Part shown: in pieces, positions 24,188-49,708 of the stretch
How the letters are laid out: every line of letters starts with the position of its first letter
Position numbering within the stretch: position 1 is the stretch's first letter
Source: Sphyrna mokarran
Taxonomy: Eukaryota
Reading direction: 5' to 3'
Length of the DNA stretch: 64,000 bases
NCBI GenBank assembly: GCA_024679065.1
Contig: JAGIQG010000014.1
Coordinates: 28,024,001-28,088,000 of the forward strand
Program-made: the position numbers and the translations under genes
Notes under the pieces: generated by a model
What the model was told of the DNA's origin: nothing
The model's database searches: none
The model's input: only the letters and a program-made list of their open reading frames with translations

Positions 24188-24535
24188 GTTCAGTCCCCTC
24201 TGTAAGAGGATCTGAAGTGCGAGGATTCCTGGGGCAGTCAGTCACATTGCCCTGCACGTACTCTGTTACACAGAATGGTAAAACTGAAATGTGCTGGGGC
24301 CGGGGATGGTGCCCTATATCGCACTGTTCACAAACACTGATTGAAACAAATGGGAAAACTGTAACTTCCAGAATCTCTGAAAAATACCATCTTGATGGTA
24401 AAATAGAGGAAGGGGATGTATCTCTCACCGTGGATAATCTCAGTGAAGGAGACAGTGGCTGGTATTGCTGCCGTGTAGAGATATCCGGCCTTCTTAATGA
24501 TCAGAAAGAGAATTTCAATCTGCTGGTTTTGGAGG
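24188..24535 (+). CDS. TIM/HAVCR-family IgV domain exon, copy A
   Basis: ag/gtaag bounded 348-nt phase 1-1 exon; VTLPCTY, MCWGRGWCPISHC, GDVSLT, DSGWYCCRVEISGLLND: six cysteines and FG-loop xxND motif diagnostic of TIM-1/3/4 family. Orthology to HAVCR1, HAVCR2 or TIMD4 cannot be assigned. Confidence 0.95.
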
Positions 24536-24623
24536 GTAAGTCAGTTCAATATTATACATTACTAATATTTCTCTCATTTCAATACTGATTTGTTGTTGAT
24601 ATCTGTGATAAATCAGAGATGTC

Positions 24624-24965
24624 ATAGAATCCCTATTGTGCAGAATGAGGCCATTGGGCCCACTGAACCTGCAACAATGATAATCCCACCCTAGGCCCTA
24701 TCCCAGTAACCCCACATATTTACCCTGCTTATTCACCTGACATTAAGGGGCAATTTAGCATGGCCAATCAATCTACACCACCGCCCCCCCCGCCTCCACA
24801 CACACACATCTTGGACTGTGGGAGGAAACCTAAGCAAAGAGAAAACCCGTGCAGATACGGGGACAACATGCAGATTCCACATAGAAAGTCAACTGAAAGT
24901 GGAATTGAATCTGGGGGCCCTGATGCTGTGAGGCAACAGTGCTAACAACTACACGACTGTGCCTT
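24624..24965 (-). mobile_element. V-SINE (HE1-like)
   Basis: Reverse-complement copy (catagaatccct...ggggcaatttagcatggccaa...ctgtgaggcaacagtgctaac). Confidence 0.8.
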
Positions 24966-25107
24966 CCTGAATATTGGGAGCTGTGATACGTTTACACAAT
25001 GCAGAAGGTGGTGGCGTACAGTTTGAATTTATTGATATCTTAAGGAAAAGAGTTTTGTGTATTTGTTATAGTGACAGAACATGGGCAGAAGAGATACCAA
25101 TGTCTCG

Positions 25108-25256
25108 TACTGCTGCCGTGTACATAGTATTGGCCTCTTTAATGACCAGAAAGTAAATTCCAGTCTCCTGCTTTTGGAGAATCTGTTCAATATAATCCAT
25201 TCATTGTATTTCTCACACCTGAATTGCTTATCTAGATTTATTGTCGCTATCTCTGT
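25108..25256 (+). pseudogene. Relic 3' end of a TIM IgV exon (YCCRVHSIGLFNDQKVNSSLLLLE) plus homologous intron
   Basis: 25108-25179 translates to the F-G strands of the TIM IgV; donor GT lost; downstream sequence resembles 24541-24607. Confidence 0.85.
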
Positions 25257-26439
25257 TTAATGTCAAGGCTTATGCTAAACGTAGGTGCAGTACAACAGAG
25301 AAAAATACAAAAGTGGAATCTGTCTGCTGGAGCATGTTATTCCTTGCTGAATCTGGAGGCAGGCAGCTGTACATCTTTAACTGGTTGCATAAGTATTGCC
25401 CTTACGCATTTAAAACAGCATAAGGCCTCAATTCCAAATTTGTAAGCTCTTTAATGAGTAACTGTCCTCTTTGTGAAACATCTGGTTATAGGAGTTTGGG
25501 GACCACCTTTGATATTCCGTCTAATTTTCCTTTGCCATGTGTGGTTTGCTTATTGTCAAGTGTGGTACATTTCTGAGAGAATGTTGCTGGTCTTTATGGA
25601 AATGATGACAAAAGACTAACAACTTAAACAATTTAGCAGCTCTTACATGCCAGGAATGTGATTGCACTATTGACATGTTACTTGCACAGGTCATCAAGAT
25701 GTACAGATGAATACAAACATCTCAATCCTGACTGATGAGTGCTGGGTAGAAATTTAGAGGCTAAAATGAATGGTTGAAAAGTCAATGTGCTGGGAAATCC
25801 AGAAGGAAAAACTCTAGCCGTGATTCAACTCAGAAACAGAAAACACTAGAAGTACTCAGCAGGTCTGGCCACTTCTATGGAGTGAGAAATAGATTGGCAA
25901 TCCATTCAAACTTTTCCAAGCCTCAATGCTGCTCTGCATTTCTTGCCTGAATTTCCAAGCCTGGTTTATGGAGAGCAGCATTGCTCAGAGACCTCCAGAG
26001 CAGCATTGTAGCAAAGTGATGAAGACAGAATACTTCCCATTTTTTACGGCCTTAGTTTCCTCATCATAAGTTCAAATGTCCAGTGCAAATGTTAGTGAAT
26101 GGGCTGAGTGTTTGAAGAGGGAATGAATAGGATGGTAGGTGGATAGGTTTGTAGGTAGATGAAGTGGTAGCTGGGTCAGGGAATAATCAGGTTGGCAGGG
26201 TGGACAGTTGAGTTGGATTGGGAGGGGCAATCAAGTGTTTGGGTGGTCAGGAAGTACTCTGGTTGGGTTAAGGTGGATCAGGGGTGACTATACGATAGGA
26301 GGTAGTCAGCTTGGGGATTGGGATTTAGTGGGTTAGTCGGGAGGTAAGAATAAGTACTGAGGGATAGTCGGGGGTAGGGTATTGTGAGTTAACATAATGA
26401 TTGGATGTTTTTGGAGGGGAGACAGGGAGTGTCATTATG

Positions 26440-28800
26440 GGAAAAGCCAGGTCTGATTTGTTATGGAAAAATTAGTGTAACTAACTTGTTGCAGCTTTTT
26501 GATGAGGTAACAGAGAGTAGATGAGGGCAATGCTGTTGGTGTGGTGTACATGGTCTTCCAAAAGGCATTTGGTAAGGTGTCATACAACAGACTGGTAACA
26601 TGAATTATAGTTCATGGAATAAAAGAAGCCATAATAACATGGATATGGAATTGACAGTGACAGCAACAGAAAGTAATGGTTTTTTGAGCTGCAGGAAGGT
26701 TTCTAGTGGAATTCCTGAAGAGTCAGTGCTCTTGTTGATATTTTTTGATGACGTAGACATTGGTGCCCAGGATATAATTTCAAAATTTACAGATGATAAA
26801 AATTTGGTAGCAGTGTGAACTGTGAAGAGGATAGTGTAGAACTTCAAAAGGATATGAACAAGTTGGTGGATGCATGGACAGCTGGAAGACAAAATTCAAT
26901 GTGGAGAAATGTGAAGTGATTCATTTTAGCCAGAAGAACATGGAGAGACAATATGAAATAAAATACACTACTCTAAAGGATGAAGGGAACCTGGATGTAT
27001 GTGTGAAGAAAGCAACAAATACGGCAGGATATGTTTAGATGCAGTTAAAAAAGCATACAGTCAGCATGCTAACATTATTAAGAAAGGCATTAGGGAAGAG
27101 TATATTAGCATGGATTTAGAATTAGTTAGCTGACAGGAAGCCACGAATGGGGATAAATATGGCTGTTTTGGTTGACAGGATGTGGCGAGTGGAATGCCAT
27201 TGGGATCAAGGATGGGGGTTCAACTATTTACAATTTATATTAACGACTTGGATGAAGGGACCAAATGTATGTTTGCCAAGTTTGCTAACAAAATGAAGTT
27301 AGGTAGGAAAGTAGGTTGTATGTGGATGTAAGTATTTTGCAGAGGTGCATATGTTAAATGAATTGGCAGATGGAGTATAATGTGAATATATCCATTTTGA
27401 CAGAAAGAGTGGAATTGCAATATATTATTTAAATAGGGAGATTGCAGAACTCTGAGGTACAGAGGAATCGGGGTCTCTTGGTAAATGAATCAGGGAATGT
27501 TAGTAAGCAGGTACAGCATTTGATTAGGAAGGGAAATGAAATGTCATTTATTGCAAAGGGGAATGGAATATCAAAGCAGAGGTGTTTTATACAATTGTAC
27601 AGGCAATTGATGAAACCGCATTGAGAATACTATGTACGGTTTTGGTTTCCTTACTTAAGAGAAGATATACATGTGTTGGAAGCAGTTCAGAAAAGATTGC
27701 ACTTGACTGATGCCTGCAAGGGTGTTACCTTATGAGATAAAATTGGGCAGGTTGGGCCTGTATCCATTGGAGTTTAGAAGATTGAGGGATTATCTTATTG
27801 GAATACATAAGATCCTGAAGGGACTTGGCAGGGTGCATGTTGAAAAGACAAAGAACAAAAACAGCATGGGAAACAGGCCCTTCGGCCCAATGAGCATTTT
27901 CCCTTGTGAGAGAGAATAGAACTGGGGGACACGGTTTGAACATAGGGTATTTCCTATTGAAAATGGGAAAAGAAAAAAGCTTTTTCTTTCAGAGGGTTGT
28001 GAATCTTTGGGACTCTCTTCTAAACAATACAGCAAATTTGTAGAGCAGAAGTAGATGGGTTCTTGATTAACAAGGGAATAACAGGTCAGTGGAATGTGAT
28101 GTTGAGGCCACAATTAGATCAGCCATTTTATTGAATGGTGTAGTAGGCATGAAGGGTCAAATAACCTATTCCTGATCCTAATTAGTACATTCAGATGTAT
28201 GTTCATATTTTTGTATCTTTAGCAAAGTGGGCAAGAGCAAAGAGATTATGTTGAACTTGTAAGAGATACTACTTCAGCCTCATCTGGAGTATTGCATCCA
28301 GTTTGGGGCATCGCACTTAAGGAAGGATGTCAAGACATTGGAGAGAATGCAGAAAAGGTTCACCAGAATGACTCCAGAGATGAAGAACTTCAGTTATTAG
28401 GATAGACTGGAGAAGTGTGGGATTATTTTTCTTGGAGGAGGAGATTGGTGGGATATTTGATACAGGTATTCAAAATCATGAGGAGTCTGGACAGGGTAGA
28501 TAGGGAGAAAATGTTCTCTCTTGTGAAAGAATTGAGAGTAAGAGTATATTGGTTTAAGGTAATTGGTGAAAGAAGCAAGCGCAAAATAAGGAAAATCCTT
28601 TTCACGCATTGAGTGGTTAAGCTCTGGAATGTGCTGAAGGTTCAACTGAGACCTTCAAAAGTGAATTAGACTTAGCTGAAAAGAAAGGTTGTGCAGGATT
28701 ATTGCCAGAAGATATGGCACTAGGTTAATTGCCCATTCTGGGAGCTCATTTGATGCAGATGTGATAGACCAAATGGCTTCCTTTGTGCTATAACAATTTT
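26440..28800 (+). mobile_element. Several stacked decayed CR1 LINE fragments
   Basis: Repeated remnants of FDEVT, KAFGKV, SKFTDDK, LGLYPLEFRRLR, VFKIMRSLDRVDREKMF. Confidence 0.8.
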
Positions 28801-28894
28801 GTTGTATGAATGAGGAAATAGCAATTGAATTGGATCTCTGGATCCTTTAAACCTCTGCTTAAACCTGAACATTTTTTTACTCTGTTTCTTTCAG

Positions 28895-28974
28895 GTAAGA
28901 AGATTTCGAATGGCACTAATTCAGCAACTACCTCACTGACTAAGCGAAGTTCAACTCAAACTCCAGAGTTGACG
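28895..28974 (+). CDS. TIM copy A Ser/Thr-rich stalk (mucin-like) exon (GKKISNGTNSATTSLTKRSSTQTPELT)
   Basis: Long pyrimidine tract + tcag acceptor, phase 1 start in frame with IgV exon, G|GTGAGC donor (phase 0), S/T-rich with NGT sequon. Confidence 0.8.
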
Positions 28975-31039
28975 GTGAGCAATTCCCTTTTCACAGTAGA
29001 GAATCCCTATAGTGTAAAAGGAGGCCATTAGGCCTATTGTGCCTGCAGAGTCTCTGAAAGAGCATCTTACCCAGACCCACCCTATCCCCGTAAACTTGTA
29101 CATTTGCCATGGCTAATCTACCTAACTTACACAAGCTGGGACACTAAGGGGCAATTTAGCAAGGTTAATCCACCTAACTTGCGCATCTTTGGACTATGGT
29201 AGGAAACCAGAGCACATTTCCATATGATTATCAGCTCCATGCCAGAGTTGATTGCAGTCAGTAAAGAGTGCCTGGGAGGCTTGTGACCAGTGCTAAAGGC
29301 TCCCCACTCCTGTCTCCTGGCCCATTGTGCTACTGGAACAGTGCAGCGGGCCAGGAGAATCCCAGCCCACATTTTTTAAGAATCGTGGTTCCAGACTATT
29401 CAGAAGAGTTATAAACCCACGTTTGCATGAAGGGACCTTTCAAAAAGTGAGTTTAAATGCCCTCCTTGAGGGTTGGGTGGAGTGCCATAGCTAGGCATAG
29501 GGCCATGAGGGCCATAGGGGTGAATTTATTTATTTATGTATTTACTAGTGTCACAAATAGGCTTACATTAACTCTGTAATGAAGTTATTGTGAAAATCCC
29601 CTAGTTGCCATACTCCGGTGCCTGTTTGGATACACTGAGGGAGAATTTAGCACGGCCAATGCACCTAACCGGCATGTCTTTTAGACTGTGAGAGCAAACC
29701 AGAGCACCCAGAAGAAACCCACTCAGAAAATGCGTAGACTCCACACTGACAGTGACTCAAGCCAGGAATCGATCCTGGGTCCCTGGCACTGTGAGACAGC
29801 AGTGTTACCATGGTGAGTGGGATACATGGGATGACATGGATGGGGTATCATAGGAATCACAAGAGCTCAGAACAGGAGTCAGCAATTTATTCCATCAGGC
29901 TTTCTCTCTTATTTAATATAATCATGGCTGATCTGATCTTCGTCTCAACTCCAATTTCCTGTTCATTCACCATAGCTTTTCACACTCTTACTAATTAAAA
30001 ATCTATCCAACTCTTCTTTAAGTTTATTCAAAGACCCCACATCTACCACACTCTAGGGTAGTGAATTCCACAGACTCACAACTCTTTGAGATATATAATT
30101 TTTCCTCAACTGTTTTAAACTGTACACAATATTCTAAGTCTGGTCTTGTGAGTGTGAGGGAGTGAGGCTCTGTGAGGGGTGTGGGGCCTTTTTGTTTTTA
30201 TTTGAACTGGGACATAGTTCCACAGCATTGAGATGTGCCTTTTGAATAGTCTGCCTCAGCATTCAGCACATCCTGTGTTGCCTCTGTTCTCATTTCCAGG
30301 TGACTTGACTCCTACCTGCAGCTACCTCTGGCAGTGATGGCTGTGCCATTGTGGGTAGTCGGGCAGGCCGAGTCTGGAATTCTCCAGACTCCTTGAGGAT
30401 AAAAATTCAGGCCCTTTGCACAATATCTCACAGAAAAGAGTCAGCTACTAGACAAAGAAGATTTTATGGAGATGCAGAGAAGGACTGTTTTAGGTGAATA
30501 GGCAAGCAGGATGCTTGTGAGAGTTTGTTCTGTATCAAATGGAAGGGAACAGAACACATACACATCTCTTTAAGGAAAAGGGAGTTACAAATGTGGCTCT
30601 TGCTGTGTAAATTGAATCTGGAAAACTCGGGTTGAATGGAATAATATTTGAAGGATACATTTGTGACTCGAAGTGAGCTGTTGGAATGCTAGGAGTAAGT
30701 GTGAAACTTACTATAATTTTACATAGCTGTCAAAAGTTCAGCACATAGCAAAAAGGAGTAGTCAGTCATATATCAATTGCATTAGTTAATTAATGCAAAA
30801 GTGTATTTTCTTTATTTTGGTATTTTAATTATGTTAGGTAGTGTTTGATCAATGTTCATTTTAGTTGGTTACAATGGAAGTTTAAAATGTGAAATCTTCT
30901 TTGGTGACACCTGTCAGCTGCAGTGAAATTAATCACTTTTTAAAAGTTATCGGTCCCTTTGAGGATCCATTTGCTGCGATTTTATTTCCGTGTTCACTGC
31001 AAATGCAAATGGTAACATGGGCACAAATTCAGAAACAAG

Positions 31040-31415
31040 AAACTCCCTCCCCCGCCCACCCCACTTGGGCTGTCCGTTACCTGCTCCAGGTTGTCCTTTG
31101 TCACACCATTAACAGATTCTGATCTCCTCGTGCCTCTATCAGCATTCTTCTTAGCCATAATCATCGCCATCTACATTTCTTTTGTATTCTTGCCCAATAT
31201 TTCTTTGTCAATCCCTCCCCAGCTTCCACCTATCACTGACCTTCTATTTGGCCTCTACTGTTTGACCCCAACAACCCCTCCCTCACAAAAGTATACATTT
31301 TACACTATTTCCATTTCTCTTTATTTCTGATGCAATCATCTAGACTTGAAATGTTAGCTCTGTTCTCGGCCCACACATACTGTCAGACCTGCTGAGATTT
31401 TCCAGCATTTTCTTA
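31040..31415 (+). mobile_element. 3' remnant of a probable Penelope-like element with degenerate hammerhead-like motif
   Basis: ttctgatgcaatcatctagacttgaaatgttagc followed by cagacctgctgagattttccagcattttc, a tail also at about 15800-15935 (-), 16130-16225 (+) and 19345-19485 (-). Confidence 0.45.
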
Positions 31416-32870
31416 AGATTTTGCTCCTTAAGCTGTTGTTTTTGTATTTGATAGCTCATTCATGATTCTTATTCTGTTGATTCACGGGTGTTTGCCCTTC
31501 TTATCCATTTCTCAGATGTTCAGAGGTAGTGACTGTGGGATAGGATAGGATTCGATATTACCCTTGCGTATCCCTCGCTGCTCTGAGAGTAAATAATTTA
31601 GTTTTAGAGATAATGTGTGATTTTTGTTTTGGTGGTCATGCCAGACCTGTGACCAGGTCAGTCACATGACAAGAAAGCTGAGCCCAAGATCCTTGGATTT
31701 GAAAATTCAAAAGTGTGCATTTTATCATTGGTGGGACATGGTTCGAGCAGGGATGAGGGTTGAAAGTGAGAGAACTGTTGTAGAGTGGTGGAATAAGAAA
31801 ACTGGGAACATAGGGGGTTGTTGTCAGATTCCTACCATATGTTTACGTTTGACTAGGAATGCTGCTACCTTCATATTCCATACCTGTGGTTAGATACATG
31901 AAGGCAAACAGTAGAGTCTATCAACAGCTCCACATCCTTGTTATTTGCTGCCAGTGTAGGGCAGAGGTGAAACTCTTTACTAGGCTAATTTTGGAATGGT
32001 CCCAATTCCCTTTCTGGATGGAGAAGATGGCAGTCGCTCTCACCTTATCTCTTGAGTTTAGCTCTTTTGTCCATGTTTAGACCAAAGCTAAAATGAGGTC
32101 ATGAGTTGAGTACCTCTAGCGGAACCCAAAGTGGCCATTGCTGAGCAGATTATTGTTGAGTAAGTGCATTTTGATAGTGCTTTCAATGACACGTTTCACC
32201 ATCCCCTCTGCCCCGTAACCCTGTACATTTACCATAGCTAATTCATCTAATTATATATCCTTGCACTCTAAGTGGCAATTTAGCATAGCCAATCCACCTA
32301 ACCTATGCATCTTCGGATTATGGGAAACCAGAGCATCCAGAGGAAACCCACGCTGACAGGGGTACAATGCACAAACTCCATAGAGTCACCTAAGGCTGGA
32401 ATTGAACCTGGGTCCCTGGCGCTGTGAAACAGCAGTGCTAATCATAGTGCCACTATGCAGCCTCTGCTATTGTGAACACTCTTTGTATTTTTAATAACCC
32501 CGACCCAGAAAACTGGGATACAGTCAGGGTGTAAGTTCTGCCCTTATCTTTCTGAGGTGGATTTATTGAAAATCTGGTTGTAATGTTTTGGAAACAGTTC
32601 AGATTGTGATCAGAGAAATCTGATTTACATAGACATGAAACAGGGGTGGTATAGCATCCTGAATTTTAGATCATGAGAGGTATCGTAGACCCAAATATAT
32701 TTAACTTACTCCCATGATTGATACAAAACTCTGGATCTTAGTGGTCACAGGTCTAAGTAATGTTTAATAGTTAATGGATATCACTTTGTTCCATTTTTAA
32801 GATATCATTCTTAAATTTACATTGGTTTTCACTTTGCGAAGAAAGTTCCTGTTCTCTGATTCTATTTCAG

Positions 32871-33167
32871 ATACCAGGAGTGCTAGTTAGCAACTTGATA
32901 TCTTCAATTCTCTTGGCCTTTCGTGTTTCAGTTTTAATCTGCTTCATTGCAATCACTGTGCTCCTGTGTCGATGGAATCACGTTAAACCTGAACCAAATT
33001 GCTTTCTGCTTGACTGTCCCATGGGTGAAAGTGCAGCACCAGTTAAAGCCAAAGCTATTTTTTTGTTGCTTCACACTAGTTCTAAATCACTAACTAACGT
33101 AACTCCAAATCCACACAAATGTTTCACTGTTTCTAAAATTAATTTTTTTTCAATGTCATTTTTTTAG
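32871..33167 (+). CDS. TIM copy A transmembrane exon (IPGVLVSNLISSILLAFRVSVLICFIAITVLLCRWNH...); 3' boundary uncertain
   Basis: tctatttcag acceptor, phase 0 matches stalk exon; long hydrophobic run followed by RW; runs to stop at 33165-33167 unless weak donor at 33025 (G|GTGAAA) is used. Confidence 0.72.
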   Translation: MPGVLVSNLISSILLAFRVSVLICFIAITVLLCRWNHVKPEPNCFLLDCPMGESAAPVKAKAIFLLLHTSSKSLTNVTPNPHKCFTVSKINFFSMSFF

Positions 33168-35677
33168 TGTCTCTAAGAAAAGATAGCAGTAAAAAGGGTT
33201 CCAATCTTTTACAAAATGTTCTTCCACAGTTACAAAAATACATGTAAACCTGTACGGATTAGGCCACTGCTTACACTGTCACTTGCAATGATATAAGGGA
33301 GTAAACACTAGAACAGTATATGCACAGAATTGAAAACAAACACTGCCAAAAATTTCTTCAGCACAGTTATTATTTATTTTTCAACATGATGGATAAATCT
33401 TTCCACCCCTTCCCACCTCCCCCCTACTTTGAAACAGGCATTTCCACTTCCCACCCATCCCCAACAGTCAATGCCGACACTCTGTCCTTCTCTTCCAAAC
33501 ATTGGGCCCCTTCCCCCTACGCATACAGCCAGTCAGGCACCCCCCTTCCTCACAAATATCGGACCCCTTACCCCCATCCCCCACCTACACAGTCAACACA
33601 AGCATCCACCCACACCTACCCCCCTTGACAAATAGCTATCATTAGCATCCCCAGTTCCCAAGTCTGCTTCCCCCTAGCACACCACAAATAAATAAATCCC
33701 TTCCTCCCCCATGAGACTTTCACAAGATTCTGCCCTGGTACTGTCCCCAGCTTTGTAACCGGGCATTGCCAACCAGTGCCTAGGGGCAATGGCCAGGGGC
33801 AATGGCAGGTCACTGCCTGGTCTTGTTCCTCTCCCCAGGGGGTATGTTCACTTCTATGCCCTGGGGGGATTCCCAAGACTGGTTCACATCTGGGTGATGT
33901 CATGTCAGCATGGCTTGACTATACTGCAGGAGTCAATATATGGTGCGGAGGGCAGTTAATGACATGTAAATACATTAAAATGTATTTAAATCAGATTCAT
34001 ATCTGTTATGGGCATGGACCTGATTATGTCACCGGTGAAGGGTGGCCAAAATCAGAAGTCATGATCTTGCCAACGAGATCCTCAACTTCTGTGGTTTACC
34101 AAGTCTTTAGCCAACCCCTGCTATTTCCATGGACGGTGAACACAGGCTCAAGTTTGCCTCCTCTGAGTCTGAAATAAAGGCACATTGCTTCACTGCTGAA
34201 GGAAGATAAGCCATTTCAATGTACTAGTTTATCCTTTTATACAAACACATTTCTCCAATGCCATGCCAGCTACTGATTTGTCTTCGTGTAAAGAAGTAAT
34301 TTTTGACTTTTCGTTTATTCGCTCATGTGTTGTGGGCTTCACTGATAAGACTAACAATTGCTCCTCATCCCTTGGGAACAATTAAGAGTCCATCAGATTG
34401 TGTGGGTGTGGATTCAAATGTAGGCTGATGGATGGCAGATTTCCTTTCCTAGTGAATCAGCTGGTTTTTTATTACAATTGATAGTTTAATAGCTCTCATT
34501 CCTGAGACTAGTTTTTCAATTCCAGATTTTCTGTTTAATTTATTGAGTTTATTACTTGAGTTTAAATTCTCTTAACTGTCATGGTGGAATTTGAAACCAG
34601 TCTCCAAAGGATTGGCTTGGTCCTCTGGATGATTAATCCAAGGATATTACCACTATACCGCTGTCTCCCTCATCTCTGCAGTGCTGGACTTGTCTTTTAC
34701 CAATTTGTACCCATATCGCTGAACCATTCAATAGCCCAGTCCATCAGCAAACCAGCCTTCCATCCATTAACTCTGTCTGTGTTTCCAATGCTTCAGAAAA
34801 GCAGCCAGCATAATCAAAAACCCCACACTTCCACCTTTTTTCCATTGGGAAAAAGACACAAAAGTCTGAGATCAAGTACCAGCCCACTTAAAAACAACTT
34901 CTTCCCTGCTGCCATCAAACTTTTGAATGGACCTACCTTACATTAAGTTGATCTTTCTCTGCACCCTAACTATGGCTATAATACTACATTCTGCATCCTT
35001 TCCTTTCCTTCTCTGTTATGGACACTATGAACAATATGCTTTGTCTACATAGAGTGTAAGAAACAATACTTTTCATTGAACACCAATACCTGTGACAATA
35101 ACAAATTAACTCAAATCAAAAAGCATTTTAGCTATAGTGGCAAGTTTCATTGGGTAACTCCTACTTTGGAACAAAACACATGTGTTTCATTATTGGAGGA
35201 TTTTTAATGCTCAGTGGAGCATTGGTATCTTTAGTGCCAGTTAGATAAATTAGAAGTGATTAAATGAAAAGGTAAACAGATGAGTAAATGAAAATGAGGA
35301 GAGAAATGCCAAGGCTCTGAATAGAAGTCTAGAATGAAGCTAATGATGGTTGAAGGTTGCCATTTGTTCTGCGTGTAACTGGTCTTATTCCCACTTTGGG
35401 GTTAAGAATTTCTCAGGCCTCTGCCCAATCCCAGCGTCACTCCTGTCAGCTGGTTAGAATCCTTTCCAATTTGAGGATCTAAGCAGTTTGCCAAACTTGG
35501 AACTTCATCATAGAGCACCCTCGTGGAAGCTGAAACTTAACATATGATGATAGCTCAAGAGTGAAAAAGGCAAGCAATTGTGAAACATTGACAGAAATCT
35601 ATGTTTGCAAGAGTTCTGAAAAATAAACATTTCTAAAATTCTGGAAGCACATTGTGTAGCCCTGACAAGGGGAAAAA

Positions 35678-37810
35678 TACAGTAAGAAGTCTCACGACAC
35701 CAGGTTAAAGTCCAACAGGTTTATTTGGTAGCAAATGCCACTAGCTTTCAGAGCACTGCTCTTTCATCAGGTGAGTGGGGAGTTCTGATCACAAATAGGG
35801 CATATAAAAGCACATAATAAGTTTACAGAATACTGATTAAAATGCAAGTCTTTACAGCTAATTGTGCAGACAATGTGAGTGGAGATGGCATTAATCATAG
35901 ATTAAAGAGATGTGTATTGTCTCCAGACAGGACAGTAAGTGAGCTGTTGCAAGCCCAGGCCAGTCATGGGGTTATTAATAGTGTGACATGAACCCAAGAT
36001 CCTGGTTGAGGCCGTCCTCATGTGTGCAGAACTTGCCTATCAGTCTCTGGTTGGCAACTCTGCGCTATTGTGTGTTGTGAAGGCTGCCTTGGAGAACGTT
36101 TACCCAAAGATCAGAGGCTGAATGTCCGTGACCACTGAAAGGTTCGCCAACAGGAAGAGAATAGTCTTGTCTGGTGATTGTCGAACGGTGTTCATTCATC
36201 CATCGTCATAGTGTCTGCATGGTTTCCTCAATGTATCATGCCTCGGGACATCATTTCCTGCAGTGTATCAGGTAGACAACATTGGCTGAGTTGCAAGAGT
36301 TTATACTATGTACCTGGTGGATAGTGTTCTCACGTGAGATGATGGCATCTGTGTCGATGATCAGGCATGTTTTGCAGAGGTTGCTGTGGCACGGTTGTGT
36401 GATGTTGTGGTCACTGTTCTCTTGAAGGCTGGGTAGTTTGTTGCGGACAATGACCTGTTTGAGGTTGTGCAGTTGTTTGAAGGCAAGAAGTGGGGGTGTG
36501 AGGATGGCTTTGGCAAGATGTTCATCTTCATCAATGACACGTTGAAGACTCCGGAGAAGATGTTGTAGCTTCCCAGCTCAGTGCTTCACTGTACCTCAAG
36601 CCTATGGATAACCTCACTATGCTCCACTTCTCCAGCTTCCATCCTAAACACATTAAAGAAGCTATCCCCTATGGACAAGCCCTCTGTATACATAGAGTCT
36701 GCACAGATGAGGAGGATCGCAACAGACACCTCCAGACACTGAAAAATGCCCTCATAAGAACAGGATATGGCACTCAACTCATTGATCAACAGTTCTGACG
36801 CGCCGCAGCAAAAAACCACACTGACCTGCTCGGAAGACAAACATGAGACACGGTGGACAGAATACCCTTCATTGTCCAATATTTCCCTGGAGCAGAGAAA
36901 CTATGATATCTTCTCCGGAGCCTTCAATATGTCATTAATGAAGATAAACATCTTGCCAAGGCCATTTTCACACCCCCACTTCTTGCCTTCAAACAACCGC
37001 ACAACCTCTAACGGACCATTGTCAGCAGCAATCTACCCAGACTTCAGGAGAACAGTGACCACAACACCACACAGGTCTGCCACAGCAACCTCTGCAAGAT
37101 ATGCCAGATCATCAACACGGATGCCATCATCTCACGTGAGAACGCCATCCACAGGTACATGGTACATACTCTTGTAACTCGGCCAACGTTGTCTATCTGA
37201 TACACTGCAGGAAAGGATGTCCCAAGGCTTGGTACATTGGAGACACCATAACAACAGATGAATGAACAGCACTCGACAATCACCAGGCAAGAATGTTCTC
37301 TTCCTGACGGCGAACACTTCAGCAGTCATGACATTCGACCTCTGATCTTCAGGTATATGTTCTTCAAGGTGGCCTTAATGACACACGACAGCGCAGAGTC
37401 GCCAAGCAGACACTGATAGCCAAATTCCACACACATAAGGATGGCCTCAACTGGGATTTTGGATTCATGTCACACTATTTGTAATCCCCATGACTGGCCC
37501 AGGCTTGCAACATCTCACTTACTGTGCTGTCTGGAGACAATACACATCTGTTTAACTTATGATTAATGCTATCTCCACTCACATTGTCTGCACTTTTAAG
37601 ACTTGATTAGCTGTAAAGACTCACATTTTAATCAGTATTCTGTGAACTGTGTGTGTGCCTATATATGCCCTGTTTGTGAACTCCCCACTCACCTGATGAA
37701 GGAGTAGAGCTCCTAATGGCGTATGCTAGCAAATAAACCTGTTGGACTTTAACCTGGTGTTGTGAGACTTCTTACTGTGTTTACCCTGTCCAACGCTGGC
37801 ATCTCCACAT
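35678..37810. mobile_element. Penelope-like retroelement (RT C-terminus + GIY-YIG endonuclease) in inverted arrangement
   Basis: + strand 36585-37810: LHFSSFHPKHIKEAIPYGQALCIHRVC and NVVYLIHCRKGCPKAWYIGDT (GIY-YIG); 35678-36580 is a reverse-complement copy of about 36887-37777. Confidence 0.9.
35737..35775 (-). ncRNA. Minimal type I hammerhead ribozyme motif in Penelope pLTR
   Basis: Minus strand: cac CUGAUGA a agagc-agu-gcucu GAAA gc UA gug; core boxes, stem II, palindromic AGCU helix III and cac/gug stem I present. Confidence 0.7.
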
Positions 37811-38448: not shown

Positions 38449-38468
38449 GTCGATATGCAGCAATATGA
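38449..38468 (+). CDS. Possible terminal cytoplasmic exon of TIM copy A
   Basis: Good acceptor (tttttgtttttgatcctcag) in non-repetitive sequence; reads G-RYAAI* if joined from 33024 or VDMQQYEPTMAEALPLF* in phase 0. No homology support. Confidence 0.3.
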
Positions 38469-39059
38469 GCCAACTATGGCAGAAGCACTTCCTTTGTTTT
38501 GATGGACCGGAGATTTTTCAATATAATTCCATGTGCAATTATCCTGCACAATTCAAAGAAAGCATGCACTTGAAACTGGACTCCAATATCGTGATCTCAC
38601 AGCCCCTGGCCCATCCTCAACCTGTCTGAAGAACAACACCATCAAGACTAGGAAAATGTGTCAACTGGACAGTACCCAAAAGCAGTGCCAGGATCCTGTC
38701 ATTACTGGTAAACAATGATAAGCACTGCACGCTTTTCATGGACATGGGAAATTCCTCTTAGAGCTTTTAACAAGAGAAGTTTAGCTTTAGTGCTCTGTGT
38801 ATGTTTAGTCCTGGAATTTGTATTGAGAAACTGCCTGTGATTTACCATTTGTTAATTTTAATGGTGCACCAATTTGCAATACGCATTAGGACCCAATAAC
38901 TGAACTTTAGTTTCTGCTGAACCTTTTAAAACTTAATGAGTGAAATTATAACAAAAATTGGTTAATTTAAGAATTGATTTCCTATAAAACTGCAACCACA
39001 TATCTGCGCATTTAAACATTTTTACTTCCTCTTGAATAGTTATTTGGAAGATTTTCCTC

Positions 39060-39367
39060 AGAATCACAGTGCAGAAGGAGGCCATTCAGTCCACTGAAGC
39101 CATACCAACCACAATCGCACCGAATCTTATCCCCATAACCCCATACATTTACACTAGCTAGTTCTCCTGACACTAAGGGGCAATTTAGCATGGCCAATCC
39201 ACCTAACCCACACATTTCTGGACTGAGAGAGGAAACTGGAGCACCTGGAGGAACCCACACAGATACGGGGAAAATGTGTAAACTCAACACAGACAGTGAC
39301 CCAAGCTAGGAATGGTACACAGATCCCTGGCGCTGTGAGGCAGCAATGCTAACCACAGTGCCACCGT
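39060..39367 (-). mobile_element. V-SINE (HE1-like)
   Basis: Near-complete reverse-complement copy. Confidence 0.82.
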
Positions 39368-40949: not shown

Positions 40950-41198
40950 CATGATCAGCTCCCCAATTTTCTGAGGATAACCTGGGGAGGCTCCTGGATG
41001 CAGCAGAGGCGAGGTGAGGTGGGATACACTCTTCCTCCCAGGAGGACGTAGATCTAGGGGGGGAGGGGGCTGATGGAAATGCAGCCTGAGAGGAAGTCGG
41101 TCAGTGCCAGGGCAGTGACCCCCCTCCAACAGCCCCCCTTCCCGAGAGCCATGAAGCAGTGTTGGAGAAAACTCAATGACCTCATCTGTGCAGCAAGG
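40950..41198 (+). pseudogene. Harbinger Myb/SANT-like DNA-binding protein remnant
   Basis: RAMKQCWRKLNDL resembles the trihelix motif R..QC..KW.DL; followed by gtgagt donor; frameshifted upstream. Confidence 0.65.
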
Positions 41199-43609
41199 GT
41201 GAGTGCTGCACCCAATTTAGCATGTTCCTCCATTCTCAGCATCCAACATGTTTCCAGCTTCTGACCCCCAAACACCTCTTTCCTTTCCCCACAATGAGAC
41301 CTCTAAGGGTCACTGCCTGATTCTCTGCAGGAGTCATGCCACTATTTATCCTGAGAGAGGGTGAAAATGGGGTGGTAGTGTTGAGTAGACCTCCAGGTCC
41401 TCATCCCCTTTGATGAACAGGCACTGGAGCACTGCAGCTCAACACATGGCTAAACAGCTGGTGTGGGAGGGAGGATTTCAGATATCTGGACCACAGGGCT
41501 TTCTTCTGAGGTAGGTGGGAACTGTATAAGAAGGGTGGGTTGTATCTAAACTGTAATTGCATAAATGTTCTGGCTGGAAGGTTTGCTAGTGTGACAAGGG
41601 AGAATTTGGCAGGAGGAGGGAACCAAAGCAAAGGTGAATTAGCTCTCTAGAAAAGGGGAAATGTGGGCTGTCAGCAACAACATGGTTGGGGTGCCATCCA
41701 GACATGAGCACTTGTCATTCCTACACTCACTTTGAGGCAACTTCTTGGGGGCACGAGTTTCGGGTGCAAGGAGCAAGGTATAAAGAAGATGTACGATGCA
41801 TGTTTATTTGCATAGAGAGGGTAATGAGTGCATGGAACTCACTTTTAGGGGAGGTCGTGTGTGCATAAGGACATTTAAGGGATATTTGTACAGCGACCTG
41901 AATGAGCAGGGAATACAAGCATACAGTCCCTGGAAGGGTAGGGGGCAAACAAATCAAATGGGCAACGAGGCTGCTACAGGATTGGTGGGCCAAAGGGTCT
42001 GTTCCTGTGATGTAATTTCCTGGGTTCTTTCTTCTACGTTCAATGGAAAAATGTGAATCACGTACTTGGCATCCTGGATTCCTCTCCCTCTCTTGCACTT
42101 AATCTTGTATTCTGTGTAGAGGGACTGATCCTGATGCCCCAGCAGCTTCTGGATTGAAGGCCCTGGCTACAGCTCCCGTCCATCCCGAGAAAAATAGCCC
42201 AGACAAGTCCTCGGAAGATACGGGTGAAGGATCTCCGAGGGTAGCATCGTTTATCTGTCAGTTTGTATCTCACAACTTACCATCGCAGAAATTGACATTT
42301 TGGTGGATCTAGTTAGTGGCAAGGCTTCTGGGTCACAACCTGGTGAGCACAACACATCTGCTGCTGTACACCGTGTGGAGGAGGGAACATCTGAGGCCTC
42401 TGGCATGCAGACTCTGCTGGTCCCAGGCTACATGCTGGGCCTCTGAGATCCCTTCTCCCTCAGCTGCTGAAGCTGTAGGATCAGAGTCAGGGAATGCAGG
42501 AGGGGCTGACAGCCACATTGGACCAACTGTGAGGCTGCTGGAAGGAGTCCCAAAGCTTTCAAGCAAACTAGCTATTGCCTGTCTTGTGTGGTTCCCAGGC
42601 CAACACCGCAAGGATGGATCTGCAGTGGAAAGCGTGAGTCAGGGGATCCTCACCATAGATGGCAGGCTCCAAGCAATGGCCGAGTCACAGCAGGCCACAA
42701 CGGAGGGACCAAGCAGGCTTCTTGAGATTGTGCGGCACATGGCTGAGAGGCTCATGAGCTTGCAGGAGACCCAATGGGACAGCGCAGAGACACAGCAAGC
42801 AATGACAGCAACCCTTGAGAAAGTGGTGCAGTCTCAGAGGGCACGTGTTGTGGCCACTGAGAGATGGCCCACAACTCAAGTGGCCATTGTGGTGGGGTCA
42901 ACCACCATGGGTAGGATGCAGGTATTCCTCCACAATTGGCAGCAACAACATGGTCGGGCTGCCATCCAGATGTGAGCACTTGTCATTCCTACACTCACTC
43001 TGACGCAATTTCTTGGGGGCACGAGTTTCGGGTGCAAGGAGTAAAGTATAAAGAAGATGTACGATGCATGTTTACTGGCATAGAGAGGGTAATGGGTGCA
43101 TGGAACTCACTGAAGAAACGCTAGCACCCTATGGGGTGGCCCACGGGTCAAAAGGGAGCCCAAGGGAGGAGGAAGGGTTCGAGCCCACGCCAGGGCCTTC
43201 CAGCTAGGAGATTGTGGCTATGGCAACACTTCCAACGCCCCACTTCCTAACACCGGGGCATCTCAGGGGCAGCGGATTGAGGAGGGTGTCATGGAAACAT
43301 CCCAGATACCTAGAAGCAGGCCAGGACCCTGAAGTTCCAGGGTCCCCAGAGGACACCTCCTATGCACATCACTGGCTATGGGGTGAGGTAGGCAGTTGGC
43401 CCCCTTGATCTCTAATGTACATCTGGGAGTCACTGAGAGATAGTGGTCGGCCATGAAAAGTTAGGAAGTTGTAGTTGCACTGAGATGGCACTGGTGAAGG
43501 CCTGCCCTAGTTGGAAAAATATTTAAGCACCTTTATGTTTCTTCTTCATGAGGTTTTATGTTGCTACAGCTTATCTGAATGCCTTCATTGTAAATAAATG
43601 TTTGTTGGC

Positions 43610-44350
43610 AGGTCCAATGGGATGAAGGAGTATAGTATCAAGGGTAGGACTCTTAGCGGTGTAGAGAATCAGAAGGACTTTGGGGTCCGGGTCCATAGGA
43701 CTCTTAAATAGACCTCGCAGCTGAAAAATGTAGTTAAGAAAGCATATGGTGTACTAGCTTTCATTAATTGAGGGATTGAGTTTAGGAGTCGGGAGATAAT
43801 GCTACAACGCTATAAGACCCTTGTCAGACCCCACTTGGGAATACTGTGTGCACTAATGGTCGCCTCACTACAAGAACGATGTGGAAGCTATTGAAAGGGT
43901 GCAGAGGAGATTTACCAAGATTTTGCCTGGATTGGGTGGCATGCCTTATGAGGATAGGTTGAAGGAGCTAGGTCTTTTCTCCTTGGAGAGACGAAGGATG
44001 AGAGGCAACCTGATAGAGGTTTATAAGATATCGAGAGGTATAGATAGGGTGGATTCTCGGAGGCTATTTCCCAGGGCTGAAATGGTCGCTACGAGAGAAC
44101 ACAGGTTCAAAGTGCTGGGGAATAGGTACAGAGGAGATGTCAGGAATAAATTTTTCATTCAGAGGGTGGTGAGTGAGTGGAATCGGCTGTCGTTGGTGGT
44201 GGTGGTGAACTCATTGGGGTCTTTTAAGAGACTTCTGAATGAGTAGATGGGATTTAATGGGATTGAGGGTTATAGATAGGCCTGTTAGGTAGGGATATGA
44301 TCGGTGCAACTTGTGGGCTGCAGGGCCTGTTTGTGCTGTAGTGCTCTATT
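43610..44350 (+). mobile_element. CR1 LINE fragment nested in the Harbinger
   Basis: EAIERVQRRFTKILPGL, LFSLERRRMRGNLIEVYK, FFIQRVVSEWNRL. Confidence 0.9.
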
Positions 44351-44359
44351 TCTCAACAA

Positions 44360-46000
44360 TCACCTGTGAACAAATTGTCTCGAATATGATTCCTGTCCCA
44401 TTGATAATCACCTGATGGATGCCTCATGGTAATATCAGTTGGGGTGGCCCCTCAATGCAGTGTCACTGAGAAAAGGAAGCCATTGGTCTCTCATACCTCA
44501 CAAGCGATTCCCTCCCATTCCCCCACTGTACCCGTATGGGGTGTCTTGGATCCCTTATCTGCTAGACAGATGTGTGCCCAGGTGCCAGCGTGCATGCAGA
44601 GCTCAGATAGAAGTCAGATTAGTTTGCACTAGGGCATCATCAGAATGGTTCTTAATGAGTCATTATCACCCTCCAAACAACTCAGTAACATGGATTACCC
44701 AGGCCCACTATTCTGATGTGACAGTGTGCAGGATAAATGGAAGACATTTTGGGGGGCAGGAAATGGAATCCACAATCACCATCCCTTAGTGACTGAACTG
44801 CCTGGTTATTAGAGTCTCCCTTGCTGCCCTCACATGCCTCAGCTAAGATGTTAGCTCTCCACCACCTGGCTGGTGTTCCAAGGCGTTCTCTTCCTCCTCC
44901 ACTGCTGGTCATCCTCCCTAGTAACAGCCATTGGTCATCCTTCACATCCTCTTTCTCCTCCAAGAGCTCACCTTGCTGCAGAGTCAGATTGTGCAAGGCA
45001 CACCACCACCATGCAGGAGGAGATCAAGAGGCTATAATAGAAGGCCCCTCCAAATCGGTCCAGGCACTGGAATCGCATCTTGAGAAGCCCAGTGCACCTC
45101 ATGTCCTTCGGGTAGCTGCATGGGTTTCATTATAGCGGGTATCTGCATCACTCACAGGTCTTTGCACAGGCATCGTCAGCATGTCTGAAGCGGGTAAACC
45201 ATAATACCCAGGAGTCAGCCCCGCAGCCAGGATTCCTCCTCAAACGACTCCGGGATATCCAAGCTCCTGACAATGAAGCTGTCATGCATACTGCTTGGAT
45301 GTTTGGCACTGACGTGCATGATGGTCGTATTGTGGTCACACACAATTTTACATTCAGAGAGTGGAACCCCTTCCTTTTAATAAATCATCATGGATTCTGT
45401 AGGGAGGCTCTGAGGGTGACGTGGGTGCAATTGATGGCCCGCTGTGCATTGGGCATCCCCGTAATTGCAGCAAACCCTGCAACCTGCGCTTCCTGATGGG
45501 CCTGGTCCAGGTTGAATTTGATGTACTGCCCCACACGGGCATAAAGGGTTTCAGTGACCTGCTTGACACAGATGTGTTCTGAAGAAGGGAAGGTGCCACA
45601 GACTTCGCTTGGATTCTAGAAGGAGCCAGTCGCATAGAAGTTCAGAGTGGCCATCAATTTGACAGCCACCAAGAGTGGATGCCCCTCCCTCCCACCCCCA
45701 TCCCTAGGTGCCAGGTCCTGCAACAGGCTGCATTGGTGTCACATGGTTTCTTTTTTGGAGTCGGAGATGTCAGCGTCCGGAATGTCAGGTGTCCGACATT
45801 CTTGAACGACACTCGTGCACGGAACTGCCGGGATCTCTACTCCCTCCTTCTCCTATGCTCCCGCTCTGGGTGAAAGGCAGCCACCTCCTGCCTCTGGTGG
45901 TCATCTCCATCCGGTCCCCCAAGTGGTAAGGCCCGGGCCTCTTGTGCCCGCAATTCTTCCTCCAGTTCCTCCTCCTCAGCTCTAGCAGCAACCAAAAGAA
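44360..46000 (-). pseudogene. Harbinger DDE transposase (HARBI1-like) remnant
   Basis: Minus strand: KLMATLNFYATGSF, AGFAAITGMPNAQRAINCTHV, FIKRKGFHSLNV; contains stops and frameshifts. Confidence 0.85.
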
Positions 46001-46119
46001 CAGAAAGATTGATTGCATCTCATCACTCTGAAAAGGAGGGCGGAGATGAACAAACGTGGAAGTCATGCAACGCTGCTTGCCTCTAGCACATCAACACTCA
46101 CATGCCCTCCCATGACCCT

Positions 46120-46530
46120 CAATCACCCCAGCCACATGCTCCCCATAATCACAGCCCCCCCAATCCCCCCAGCTACAAGCTCCCCATAATCACAGCCCCC
46201 CCCCCAATCCCCCCAGCACATGCTCCCCATAATCACAGCCCCCCATCCCCCACCAAGCCCAATCCAGCCCCCCCAATCCCCAGCCACATCTCCCCTAATC
46301 CAGTCCCCCCCCCCCACAACACCCCCAATCCCCCAGCCCAGCTCCCCAAATCACAGTCCCACCGATTCCGTCAGCCACAAGCTCCCCACAATCACAGCCC
46401 CCCCAATCCCCCCAGCCACATGCTCCCCATAATCACAGTCCCACCGATTCCGTCAGCAACATGCTCCCAATAATCACAGCTCCTGCCATGCCCCCCAGTC
46501 CTCCCAGCCACATGCTCCCTACAATCACAG
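46120..46530. repeat. C-rich ~40-bp minisatellite (cccataatcacagccccccaatcccccagccacatgct) inside the Harbinger
   Basis: ataatcacag / cacatgctccc recur at roughly 40-bp intervals. Confidence 0.88.
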
Positions 46531-47484
46531 TTCTTGGCATAGTTGAGAGGCTGCATCACTTCTACCTGTAAGGGCTTTGTGCACATCCCTTCAGCCTGAA
46601 GTGAGTTGAGTACGCTCGGACCCAGCATCACTGCAAGACCTGAGGTCAGTGCTGAGACCCGGGCTCATATACTACAAAACAAACATCAGAAACCCTGCAG
46701 AACAATAGCACCCCTCCCCCACCCTCCCACACACTTGGAGAGCCGTCACCGACCCAAGGTAGAAAATGGCTGCAACAACATGGCATGGAACATAGAACAC
46801 TACAGCACAGTAACGGGCACTTCGGCCCTCAATGTTGTACTGAGCTATGTCCGAACCCAAGATCAAACTATCCCACACCCTATCACACCCGTGAGTAGCA
46901 AGAGAGCTTTCGGACACCATGCACTTACCTCCTTGCCAACCCTCACTGATGAAGCATCCAAATAAGACTTTTATTGAGCGTGTTCATTTTGCATCAATTC
47001 CGGATTGGCAAATGCAGCGGTAAAGGGGGAAATGCTGATAAAGTTTGGCAGGCAGTTCATTAATTCAACTGAAATGCACGCAAATGCATTTACATCACTG
47101 CTGCGCCCGTTTCAGGTGCGAATGGGATCGCGGCCATTCCTGGGCCTTGGTAACGTGGGCATCTGCGTGAATGCTGGGGCGCATCATGTTAATGGCCTCA
47201 CACCCGACTTTACCACATTTTCGTACCCATTATGGTAAAATCAGGCCTTTAGAGTTGGGGACGAACCCAATGTAGATTTGGGCGCCCCAATCACTGTCAC
47301 AAAAAAATTAACCTGTCCCCTTCCACCATGGAGATATCTAGTTATCTACCTGTTAGTTATCTACCAGTGCTCCTTCACCACACTTTTTCTAACAAATGAT
47401 TAAATGTGAGTTGTAATGCTTCTGCTATCTCATTCATATACTCATTTTTAATAGATGAATGAAATCTGTTCAGACCAGAACTGA

Positions 47485-47735
47485 TGTTCATGACGTGAAG
47501 AAGTCTTAAACAGCCTGAAAAATCCATGGAGAAACCCTTAACAGAGGGGCTAGTGAATCATTTCACTCAAAACCCATTCATGGTAGCAGAACATTTTTGA
47601 TTTTACAAAAGGGTAGAGCTGGAAGGAGAGTCCATTGCTCAATTTATGGCTGTGTTAGAAAGACAAGGCAGAGCAGTGTGAATTTGTCAGTTTTCTGCAA
47701 GATGTGTTATGGGATCATTTAGTTTGTGGCCTCTT
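47485..47735 (+). mobile_element. Gypsy-like gag fragment (inverted relative to 48050-48306)
   Basis: GESIAQFMAVL and FLQDVLWDHLVCGL remnants; reverse-complement homology to 48050-48306. Confidence 0.7.
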
Positions 47736-47994
47736 TGCTTTTATTTAGTTTATACATCTTTTAAAAATATTATTGCATTTTCAATGTCTTGTCGATTTGT
47801 TCCACATCACTGGGGAAAAGCAGGGCAAAATCATTCCTTAATATTTTGTCATCTTTCCATTGTCACTTGTGATAGTATCTTGTCGGGGGGGGGGGGGGGG
47901 GGAGAGGGTAAGAAACCGGGCGCGCTTTTTTTTTCATTTCCCACCCTATCTTATCATCTCACCTCATCGAATGACAGGAGGAGCAAGGTCGTAA

Positions 47995-48980
47995 AATCAT
48001 GTCTGAAGACTTTTATTGTTCGAAGTTTTTGTTGGACCGCTTCATTTCGGAGGCCACAAACTAAACGGTCCCGTAATACATCTTGCAGGAAACTGCCAAG
48101 TTCACACACTTCGATCTGTCTTTTTAACACAGCCACAAATTGAGCAATGGAATCTCTTTCCTGCTTTGTGTGCTCTTTCGTAAAATCTTCCGCTATCATG
48201 AGTGGGTTTTTGAGTGAAATGATTCACTAGCCCCTCACACAAATCCACTAAGTGTTTCTCTGTCGACTTTTCAGGCTGTGTAAGACTTCTTCACGTCATG
48301 AACATTTTACACCATCCCCCTTCCCCCCCCCGTCGTGCTGAGAATGACCCCTGCCAGGAGGTTTTCATCCATCTTGTTAGCTTTGAAGTGAAAATGCTCA
48401 TATATTAGCGCCCAGCCCTTCATTAAATGGTCCCCATCACTCTGAATTAACCGGCCATTTTCTGTTCCCGCTGCCGTGTGGTTTTCCCGCCACCTGTGTT
48501 CAATAGCCACTTGCAGCCGGGTCTACTTCTTCCACACTTTTTGCGCCAGCCATTCCCTCACTAGTTGTGGTCTCCTGCACGCAACCCGAGTCCCTTCCTG
48601 TCCGATGATCTTGGTGGCCCAGGTGAGAATACCTCTCCCATTCTGGCCGTCAACTCAAGCCCTAGACCCCTTGTGACTACAGCCCGATGCCTGCTGTGTG
48701 CCTTTTTATTGGAATCTGGGTGATATCTGCTCTTCCTCCTTCCTTCCACCAGTCCAGTGGAAACACATAGTGGGCTGTGACTCAGCTTTGTTGCCAGTTG
48801 TTAAATATGAGCTCCAATATTGGACTAATCAGAGACCACGAGCTAACTAAGTGTAAACTAAAAGGAACTATTTATTCAACCTCATGTCAGTAGCACAATG
48901 ATGATCGAGCAAGCTCTACCCAGGGTGGAGCTTGTGTCCTGGGTCACCAAACCTTTTAAAAGAACATACGCACAACTACA
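47995..48980 (-). mobile_element. 5' part of a Gypsy-like LTR retrotransposon (LTR 48799-48980, PBS, gag fragment)
   Basis: Minus strand TGTAG...TAACA LTR with AATAAA, followed by actggcaac PBS-like motif; gag-like SIAQFVAVLKR..CELGSFLQDVLRDRLVCGLRNEAVQQKL. Confidence 0.72.
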
Positions 48981-49123
48981 TATATAGTCTTCCTTAATTT
49001 CATTGTGGTTCCATAGTACTGATAACTGAAGGAAACTCTTAACCACATACTGAACTAATATTAAAACCAAATATTTCAACTGACCAACTGCAACTTAGAT
49101 AGTTCGAGCCTCCAGCGTCCATC

Positions 49124-49166
49124 ATGATATTTGTGACTCATCTGATTGTTCTAATTGTTCTTTTAT
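49124..49166 (+). CDS. TIM-like gene copy B, signal peptide exon (MIFVTHLIVLIVLL-C)
   Basis: atcATG context, 43 nt, phase-1 GTAAGT donor at 49167, 194-nt intron, in frame with IgV exon; spliced MIFVTHLIVLIVLLCSVPSARG looks like a cleavable signal peptide. Confidence 0.82.
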
Positions 49167-49360
49167 GTAAGTTTTTGAGCTTAAAACATAAATTTTCTTA
49201 CACTATTATGTTAATATAGAATCATTTAATATGGTCGATGTGTTACTGACACAGTCCAGTTGATAAGTTGTGTACTGTGCTGCCTGTTAATTCTCTGTAC
49301 ACTTTCTCTGGCAATGCAATGGACACTGAATTATTACTGTTTTTATCTGGATTGTTTCAG

Positions 49361-49708
49361 GTTCAGTCCCCTCTGCAAGAGGATCTGAAGTGCGAGGATT
49401 CCTGGGGCAGTCAGTCACATTGCCCTGCACATACTCTGTTACACAGAATGATAAAACTGAAATGTGCTGGGGCCGGGGATGGTGCCCTATATCGCACTGT
49501 TCACAAACACTGATTGAAACAAATGGGAAAACTGTAACTTCCAGAATCTCCGAAAAATACCATCTTGATGGTAAAATAGAGGAAGGGGATGTATCTCTCA
49601 CCGTGGATAATCTCAGTGAAGGAGACAGTGGCTGGTATTGCTGCCGTGTAGAGATTATCGGCATTTTTAATGATCAGAAAGAGAATTTCAATCTGCTGGT
49701 TTTGGAGG
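49361..49708 (+). CDS. TIM/HAVCR-family IgV domain exon, copy B
   Basis: 348-nt ag/gtaag exon, six cysteines, DSGWYCCRVEIIGIFND; 339/348 nt identical to copy A. Confidence 0.95.

Follow-up and report, generated by a model that had tools for sequence, protein, structure and literature searches.

Why should two neighboring TIM genes in a shark carry immunoglobulin V-set (IgV) exons that are nearly identical to one another and yet differ in a tight patch of one loop? The exons in question, copy A of gene 1 and copy B of gene 2, lie in a 64,000-nucleotide (nt) window of the Sphyrna mokarran genome (contig JAGIQG010000014.1, positions 28,024,001 to 28,088,000) and belong to a cluster of TIM genes. 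TIM receptors recognize the 'eat-me' lipid phosphatidylserine (PtdSer), and enveloped viruses take advantage of them. Our main result is that the TIM heads of this cluster appear to be linked by gene conversion and are carried by two ancient tail classes present in sharks and rays, while selection specific to the loop between strands F and G (the FG loop) is unproven. The reading as a whole, in which the genes resemble paired receptors with conversion-linked heads and the FG patch was missed by the latest copying, is in our judgment probably correct.

The nearest named proteins to these exons are shark TIMs (71-80% identical), and copies A and B encode V-set domains with TIM-1 and TIM-4 as their closest matches. 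Four close IgV copies, A to D, occur inside 111 kb of the genome, and mapping shark proteins on 264 kb returned four genes in tandem. All of them have a leader, an IgV, a mucin and a transmembrane (TM) exon, in the order usual for the TIM family. The cluster IgVs have the six invariant cysteines, the V-set and the TIM fold. A structure model of copy B (predicted local distance difference test score of 94.9) matches mouse TIM-1 with a template modeling score of 0.95 and a root-mean-square deviation of 0.8, and it places the patch between strand F (83-89) and strand G (98-107). The loop is identified as FG by its alignment with mouse TIM-1 EIPGWFND; LLND of copy A and IFND of copy B align to WFND as two hydrophobic residues followed by Asn-Asp, with the aromatic pair not kept. 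The human TIM-3 loop is IMND. By predicted fold, cysteines, motif and exon order, the cluster genes are members of the TIM family.

Likeness among the four genes is concentrated in the IgV exons, which are 91.7-97.4% identical, compared with 63-73% for the leaders, 69-81% for the mucin exons and 49-81% for the TM exons; the leader and mucin values are rough, since the bounds of those exons are off by a few bases. Flank likeness drops to background within 60-120 nt of the IgV exon, although not on the upstream side of genes 3 and 4; copies A and B cease to match 62 nt ahead of the exon and about 20 nt beyond it. At silent sites, genes 1 and 2 diverge by 3/79 in the IgV exon, compared with 8.5/27 for the TM exon (p = 0.0007). 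A comparison with relatives points the same way. The Mustelus protein P0003 has a TM region 97% like that of gene 2, yet its IgV is only 78% like copy B and ends IAGLFNDQIDYTN. Contigs with P0003-type IgVs were found in the runs of three of four relatives, and in one run such a contig runs into gene 2's own 3' intron flank. Gene 2 of the relatives thus has a different IgV end, from which we infer that the gene 2 exon was overwritten in this lineage.

A one-time recent duplication or shuffling of the exon into several genes, rather than repeated conversion, is a second way to account for these heads. IgV relics flank the leader and IgV exon of gene 1, as cut-and-paste events at the locus would leave them, but every gene retains its own leader and an intron of its own that reaches within about 60 nt of the exon, the pattern recurs independently in several lineages, and copy C is a mosaic, resembling A in FG but not in CC'. 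We consider shuffling quite improbable. Exon-limited gene conversion, as a mechanism deduced from these sequence patterns, has very probably kept the IgVs alike. The patchy gene conversion proposed in a first-pass annotation of this DNA is therefore strongly supported by the exon-limited identity, the overwritten gene 2 exon and IgV trees that follow lineage.

Those trees were built from one elasmobranch protein per gene, with isoform duplicates and non-elasmobranch hits dropped except for one coelacanth. In the TM tree (29 rows), 16 Arg-class sequences, with an Arg in the TM region and a short tail, are split at 100/100 from 13 Tyr-class sequences, with a neutral TM region and a Tyr tail, and sharks and rays stand on both sides. 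The IgV tree (38 rows) groups by lineage, and the four S. mokarran copies fall together (98/96). An approximately unbiased test, which dropped the coelacanth and the rows without a class (U, H and gene 3), rejected a single clade of Arg-class IgVs both for 29 rows (p = 0.017) and for 16 shark rows (p = 1e-76). Within a species, Arg-class and Tyr-class IgVs are 79-100% alike, reaching at least 85% in 14 of 15 pairs; Heptranchias has identical IgVs on both classes, and those of the two C. punctatum classes are one residue apart, in the FG loop. Of 35 elasmobranch records, a count that includes isoforms, 17 have a basic TM residue (Arg or Lys), versus 1 of 88 others, mostly birds, mammals and frogs. 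A search with the Arg-TM region alone gave 4 hits among 8 candidates, all from sharks, and is too narrow to map its range.

In S. mokarran the TM Arg is present in genes 1 and 2, while gene 4 has a neutral TM region and a tail ending EENVYNTE. Near-identical heads on neighboring genes with different tails likely amount to a paired-receptor-like pattern, although to our knowledge TIMs are not known as paired receptors. The open-access papers searched did not report conversion among shark TIMs or TIMs with a TM Arg. The genome contains an FcR-gamma TM exon (G000:C446:11045007, L043) and a second PF11628 match (G000:C335:17364945, L042) that is presumably CD3-zeta. A complex prediction for the gene 2 TM region with an FcR-gamma TM dimer, run without alignments, scored 0.14 against a mark of 0.34. 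We put the chance that the Arg class is adaptor-coupled, as its TM residue may suggest, at about even.

How, then, does the FG patch fit with exons that are otherwise shared? An exact recount agrees with the first-pass annotation that copies A and B differ at 9 of 348 nt, with 5 of these clustered in the FG loop, where EISGLLND becomes EIIGIFND; the 5 lie at exon offsets 295-305 (11 nt). The codon differences, copy A before copy B, are V/A at codon 5, T/T at 23, G/D at 30, S/S at 63, I/I at 98, S/I at 99, L/I at 101 and L/F at 102. The V to A and G to D changes and the two silent changes outside the loop were all as annotated, but the list adds that one of the five FG changes is also silent, so that silent changes total three. 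Three of the five amino-acid changes are in the loop, and the copy B patch is flanked on both sides by stretches matching copy A exactly. That divergence lies almost only in FG is true of this pair; it is not true of the other copies, because A, C and D share ISGLLND, leaving B as the only one of the four to depart, and the 24 sites at which C differs from A are mostly in CC' to C''D. Counted as bases, the clustering exceeds chance (P = 0.0002 for 5 of 9 in any 11 nt). However, offsets 295-297 adjoin and a 1-nt slip aligns all three, so they possibly arose in a single event, in which case the probability (3 of 7) is 0.067 for a free scan and 0.009 with the FG loop named beforehand.

Such a patch could mean that positive selection on FG keeps gene 2 at a different lipid or virus specificity amid homogenization of the exon. 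The patch and its copy-A flanks favor this explanation, as does the behavior of codon 99, before the loop Gly, which is hypervariable: it has 6 states over the S. mokarran copies and those of four relatives (Ala, Val, Gly or Pro in the latter, whose copies were phased by contig depth), while Gly, Asn and Asp stay. Among 37 elasmobranch IgVs the Gly is fixed and Asn and Asp are each present in 36, whereas the position ahead of Gly shows 9 states and that of the first hydrophobic residue 5, bearing out the earlier observation that Asn-Asp is kept as the hydrophobic residues vary. In C. punctatum, too, the sole IgV difference between the classes falls within FG, and FG hydrophobic residues matter for PtdSer binding: in TIM-4, losing one FG aromatic cuts binding by about 70% and losing both abolishes it (PMC8484753, in the part available). 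Gene 2 keeps one aromatic and the others none, so by analogy B may bind PtdSer better than A, C and D. Weighing against better binding by B, the same F-to-L change in human TIM-1 (F113L) did not reduce pseudovirus entry, while R110C, at the position of S/I here, did (PMC9611583, in the part available); a link between the FG differences and viruses would be drawn from this analogy.

The substitution counts (Nei-Gojobori style, with loop bounds set by hand) do not single out FG. In the four S. mokarran copies amino-acid changes concentrate in the loops (23/110 versus 3/138 sites, p = 1e-6), but loop pN is 0.21 (23/110) against a pS of 0.18 (6/34; p = 0.81), and the FG loop itself has four nonsynonymous changes and one silent change. 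Paralog differences by species involve CC' columns in 6-7 of 9 and FG columns in 4-5 of 9. Further, the non-relic contigs of the four relatives keep the Phe codon in 8 of 8 and have Leu or Pro at codon 101, so that Leu102 of A, C and D and Ile101 of B are both new and the changes are divided over both lineages. Together with the single-event probability and the neutral outcome of F113L, these data make it doubtful that selection holds the gene 2 patch apart. The diversifying selection suggested for FG in the first-pass annotation is accordingly unproven, and a nonsynonymous excess particular to FG did not emerge from the larger paralog set, in which CC' varied more. The loop pattern fits relaxed constraint or weak positive selection.

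The same counts bear on a neutral explanation, in which conversion between tandem paralogs is confined to the exon, where likeness persists, relaxed constraint lets the loops drift, and the tails have no paired function. In the loops dN is about equal to dS while in the framework the ratio is about 0.2, the relics and damaged genes indicate turnover, and relaxed constraint has been reported for converted Siglec-11/16 exons (PMC5701461, in the part available). Nonetheless, both tail classes and the TM Arg have been retained from sharks to rays, and the TM exons of genes 1-3, which are equally old, remain unhomogenized. We regard a purely neutral by-product as unlikely.

On the reading we favor, that of conversion-linked heads, the IgV exon, as the sole stretch still alike, would have been exchanged repeatedly in short tracts between cluster genes, and receptors with different tails would thereby keep a similar PtdSer-type pocket, as in the analogous systems below. 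The B patch would have been skipped, or repaired in the opposite direction, during the last exchange, with changes then gained in both lineages. The Arg-TM class would signal through an adaptor with an immunoreceptor tyrosine-based activation motif (FcR-gamma or DAP12 type) and the Tyr-tail class directly; PtdSer would be bound through the retained Asn-Asp, and loop changes may tune affinity. A more extended and only tentative version holds that conversion has kept a PtdSer-pocket head on Arg-TM and Tyr-tail forms from a time that predates the shark-ray split, and that selected micro-escapes in CC' and FG have given single genes a new specificity for lipids or pathogens; an Arg-TM form that is adaptor-coupled and absent from the bony vertebrates sampled would be one element of this joint version and is held equally tentatively.

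Several points weigh against conversion-linked, paired-receptor-like genes. The proteins of other species are automatic gene models. Catshark R2 and its ortholog retain a distinct IgV, 79% like that of the Tyr gene, so homogenization is not universal. The Tyr-class tail (EENVYNTE), with one short tail exon unmapped, does not match the consensus of the immunoreceptor tyrosine-based inhibitory motif (ITIM), and the Arg TM region has LAFR or WTAR rather than an NxxR motif at its start; the classic signs of paired receptors are therefore only half present. Part of the cluster may be decaying. The gene 1 TM exon lacks the donor present in genes 2 and 3, its frame continuing for about 64 codons, and a search for a first mucin exon of gene 1 found none. 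Gene 3 is of the Arg class by its TM region, but a 6-nt TM deletion (28121852) has removed the Arg; its IgV acceptor has changed from AG to GG, another AG being available in frame 6 nt downstream, and it also bears a 12-nt deletion. Finally, Logan contigs of the best-holding run show solely A-type letters at 49451, 49658 and 49663, as would be expected if the gene 2 FG letters, or the near-identity itself, were an artefact of assembly or polishing. However, contigs drop bubbles, so they neither confirm nor refute the B-specific letters, which rest on the assembly alone; the same run has separate zero-difference contigs for both gene 2 flanks, and the changes preserve the frame and yield the Phe found in 33 of 37 elasmobranch IgVs. 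We consider an artefact very improbable.

Known systems share parts of this arrangement. Like mammalian TIM-1 (HAVCR1), TIM-3 (HAVCR2) and TIM-4 (TIMD4), the shark genes have a six-Cys IgV, a CC'/FG cleft, an Asn-Asp metal site, a mucin stalk and one TM region in a tandem cluster, and shark gene 4 shares the Tyr tail (EENVY; mammalian features from PMC9611583 and PMC8484753, available parts). The mammalian IgVs are clearly unlike each other (HRGWFND versus VPGWFND), whereas those of the shark are homogenized; the mammalian loop has WF where the shark loop has LL or IF; and the mammalian sample has no charged TM residue, in contrast to the second shark class with its TM Arg. Siglec-11/16 are likewise neighboring genes with different signaling ends whose V-set exon is kept alike by repeated, fragmented conversion in each lineage (PMC5701461 and PMC4042635, available parts). 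Inhibitory versus activating function and a shared ligand were shown there, while the shark cluster is without an ITIM and known from its sequence, and the Siglec pattern concerns primates while the shark pattern spans sharks and rays. In the CEACAM1 paralogs and CEACAM32, the Ig exons that bind ligand evolve in concert but escape locally; the CEACAM32 escape is of whole Ig exons under selection (PMC7042247, available part), unlike the 11-nt shark patch, for which selection is unproven. The FcR-gamma-coupled NxxR receptors (Xenopus XFL, LILRA2, PIR-A, GPVI and OSCAR) also comprise an Arg, short-tail class and a neutral-TM, Tyr class (PMC2413239, available part), but in the shark class the Arg is set about 10 residues deep in the hydrophobic run.

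Relic IgV pieces lie close to gene 1 (Table 1). The 3' relic reads HSIGLFND at 25108-25152, as the first-pass annotation had noted in calling it a third variant. The letters are right, but a third functional variant or allele is ruled out: splice sites are absent from the relic, its likeness is about 79%, and its Phe codon has become Ser or Val in relatives. It is, by its sequence, an old decayed pseudo-exon. The same cut edge is seen in two relatives, and the relic comes after 260 nt of ordinary IgV 3' flank; it may be a short local duplication. On another idea, both IgV relics could be remnants of a single exon into which a leader and IgV cassette was inserted.

Table 1. Exons, loops and relics of the TIM cluster (window positions unless a genome locus is given)
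Feature	Position	Strand	Remarks
Leader-like relic	21440..21525	+	No in-frame ATG; GT donor present; 68-76% alike to the leader regions of the four genes
Relic, first 44 nt of IgV exon	21693..21736	+	Cut off
Gene 1 leader exon	21940..21991	+	MLVTELVPHFTILIFTLG; ATG to GT donor
Gene 1 IgV exon (copy A)	24188..24535	+	AG/GT intact; six Cys
Copy A FG loop	24478..24501	+	EISGLLND; common to copies C and D, which lie beyond the window
Relic, last 83 nt of IgV exon and intron flank	25098..25260	+	No donor or acceptor
Gene 1 mucin exon	28895..28974	+	In frame with IgV and TM exons
Gene 1 TM exon	32871..32978	+	Arg inside hydrophobic run (LLAFRVSVL)
Gene 2 leader exon	49124..49166	+	MIFVTHLIVLIVLL
Gene 2 IgV exon (copy B)	49361..49708	+	Apparently overwritten by A/D-type sequence
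Copy B FG loop	49651..49674	+	EIIGIFND
Gene 2 first mucin exon	63553..63594	+	
Gene 2 Arg-TM exon	G000:C446:28095452		Beyond window
Gene 3 IgV exon	28110184 (G000:C446, L004)		Beyond window
Gene 4 IgV exon	28159263		Beyond window

The gene 2 leader is joined to its IgV exon in contigs of a relative's presumed RNA run. The mammalian TIM cluster adjoins MED7; in S. mokarran MED7, the neighbor compared, is on the same contig 42 Mb off. Four further TIM-like IgV exons, 41-53% identical to copy A, occur within 10 kb at G000:C938:7448007-7457729 (L005-L008); two of their loops are without Asn-Asp (YSRGNNK and YCGGNNK), and they possibly form a multi-IgV TIM-like gene. At G000:C805:9976489-10559213, a 0.6-Mb cluster holds at least 10 IgV exons 27-39% identical to copy A, which by eye we take to be CD300/pIgR-like. 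In other species, the ray TIM models P0001/P0067 (Hypanus) and P0076 (Mobula) have two tandem IgVs, either real or fused models, and an annotated Heptranchias isoform (P0017 versus P0074) is without 16 residues comprising the FG motif and strand G, a loss that would leave it with no lipid pocket. The odd N-terminus of Mustelus P0003 is matched by window stretches 34129-34197 and 42121-42225, which lie between genes 1 and 2; this suggests that repeat DNA was annotated as exons in that model. Other repeats are a pair of 1.3-kb inverted copies, 94% identical, in the introns of genes 1 and 2 (22401-23705 and 60672-61967), whose frames presumably represent LINE reverse-transcriptase ends; a further inverted repeat, about 900 nt long and 83% identical, situated between the two genes (35675-37782); and a C-rich 41-nt tandem array of 9 copies (46116-46480).

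On its own the FG patch is minor, a few changes in a loop that is variable in all sharks, but LL versus IF on a near-identical domain provides natural variants for probing FG residues. If the wider reading is true, an adaptor-coupled TIM class with a conversion-synchronized head would represent a very old Siglec- or CEACAM-like strategy aimed at a lipid signal.

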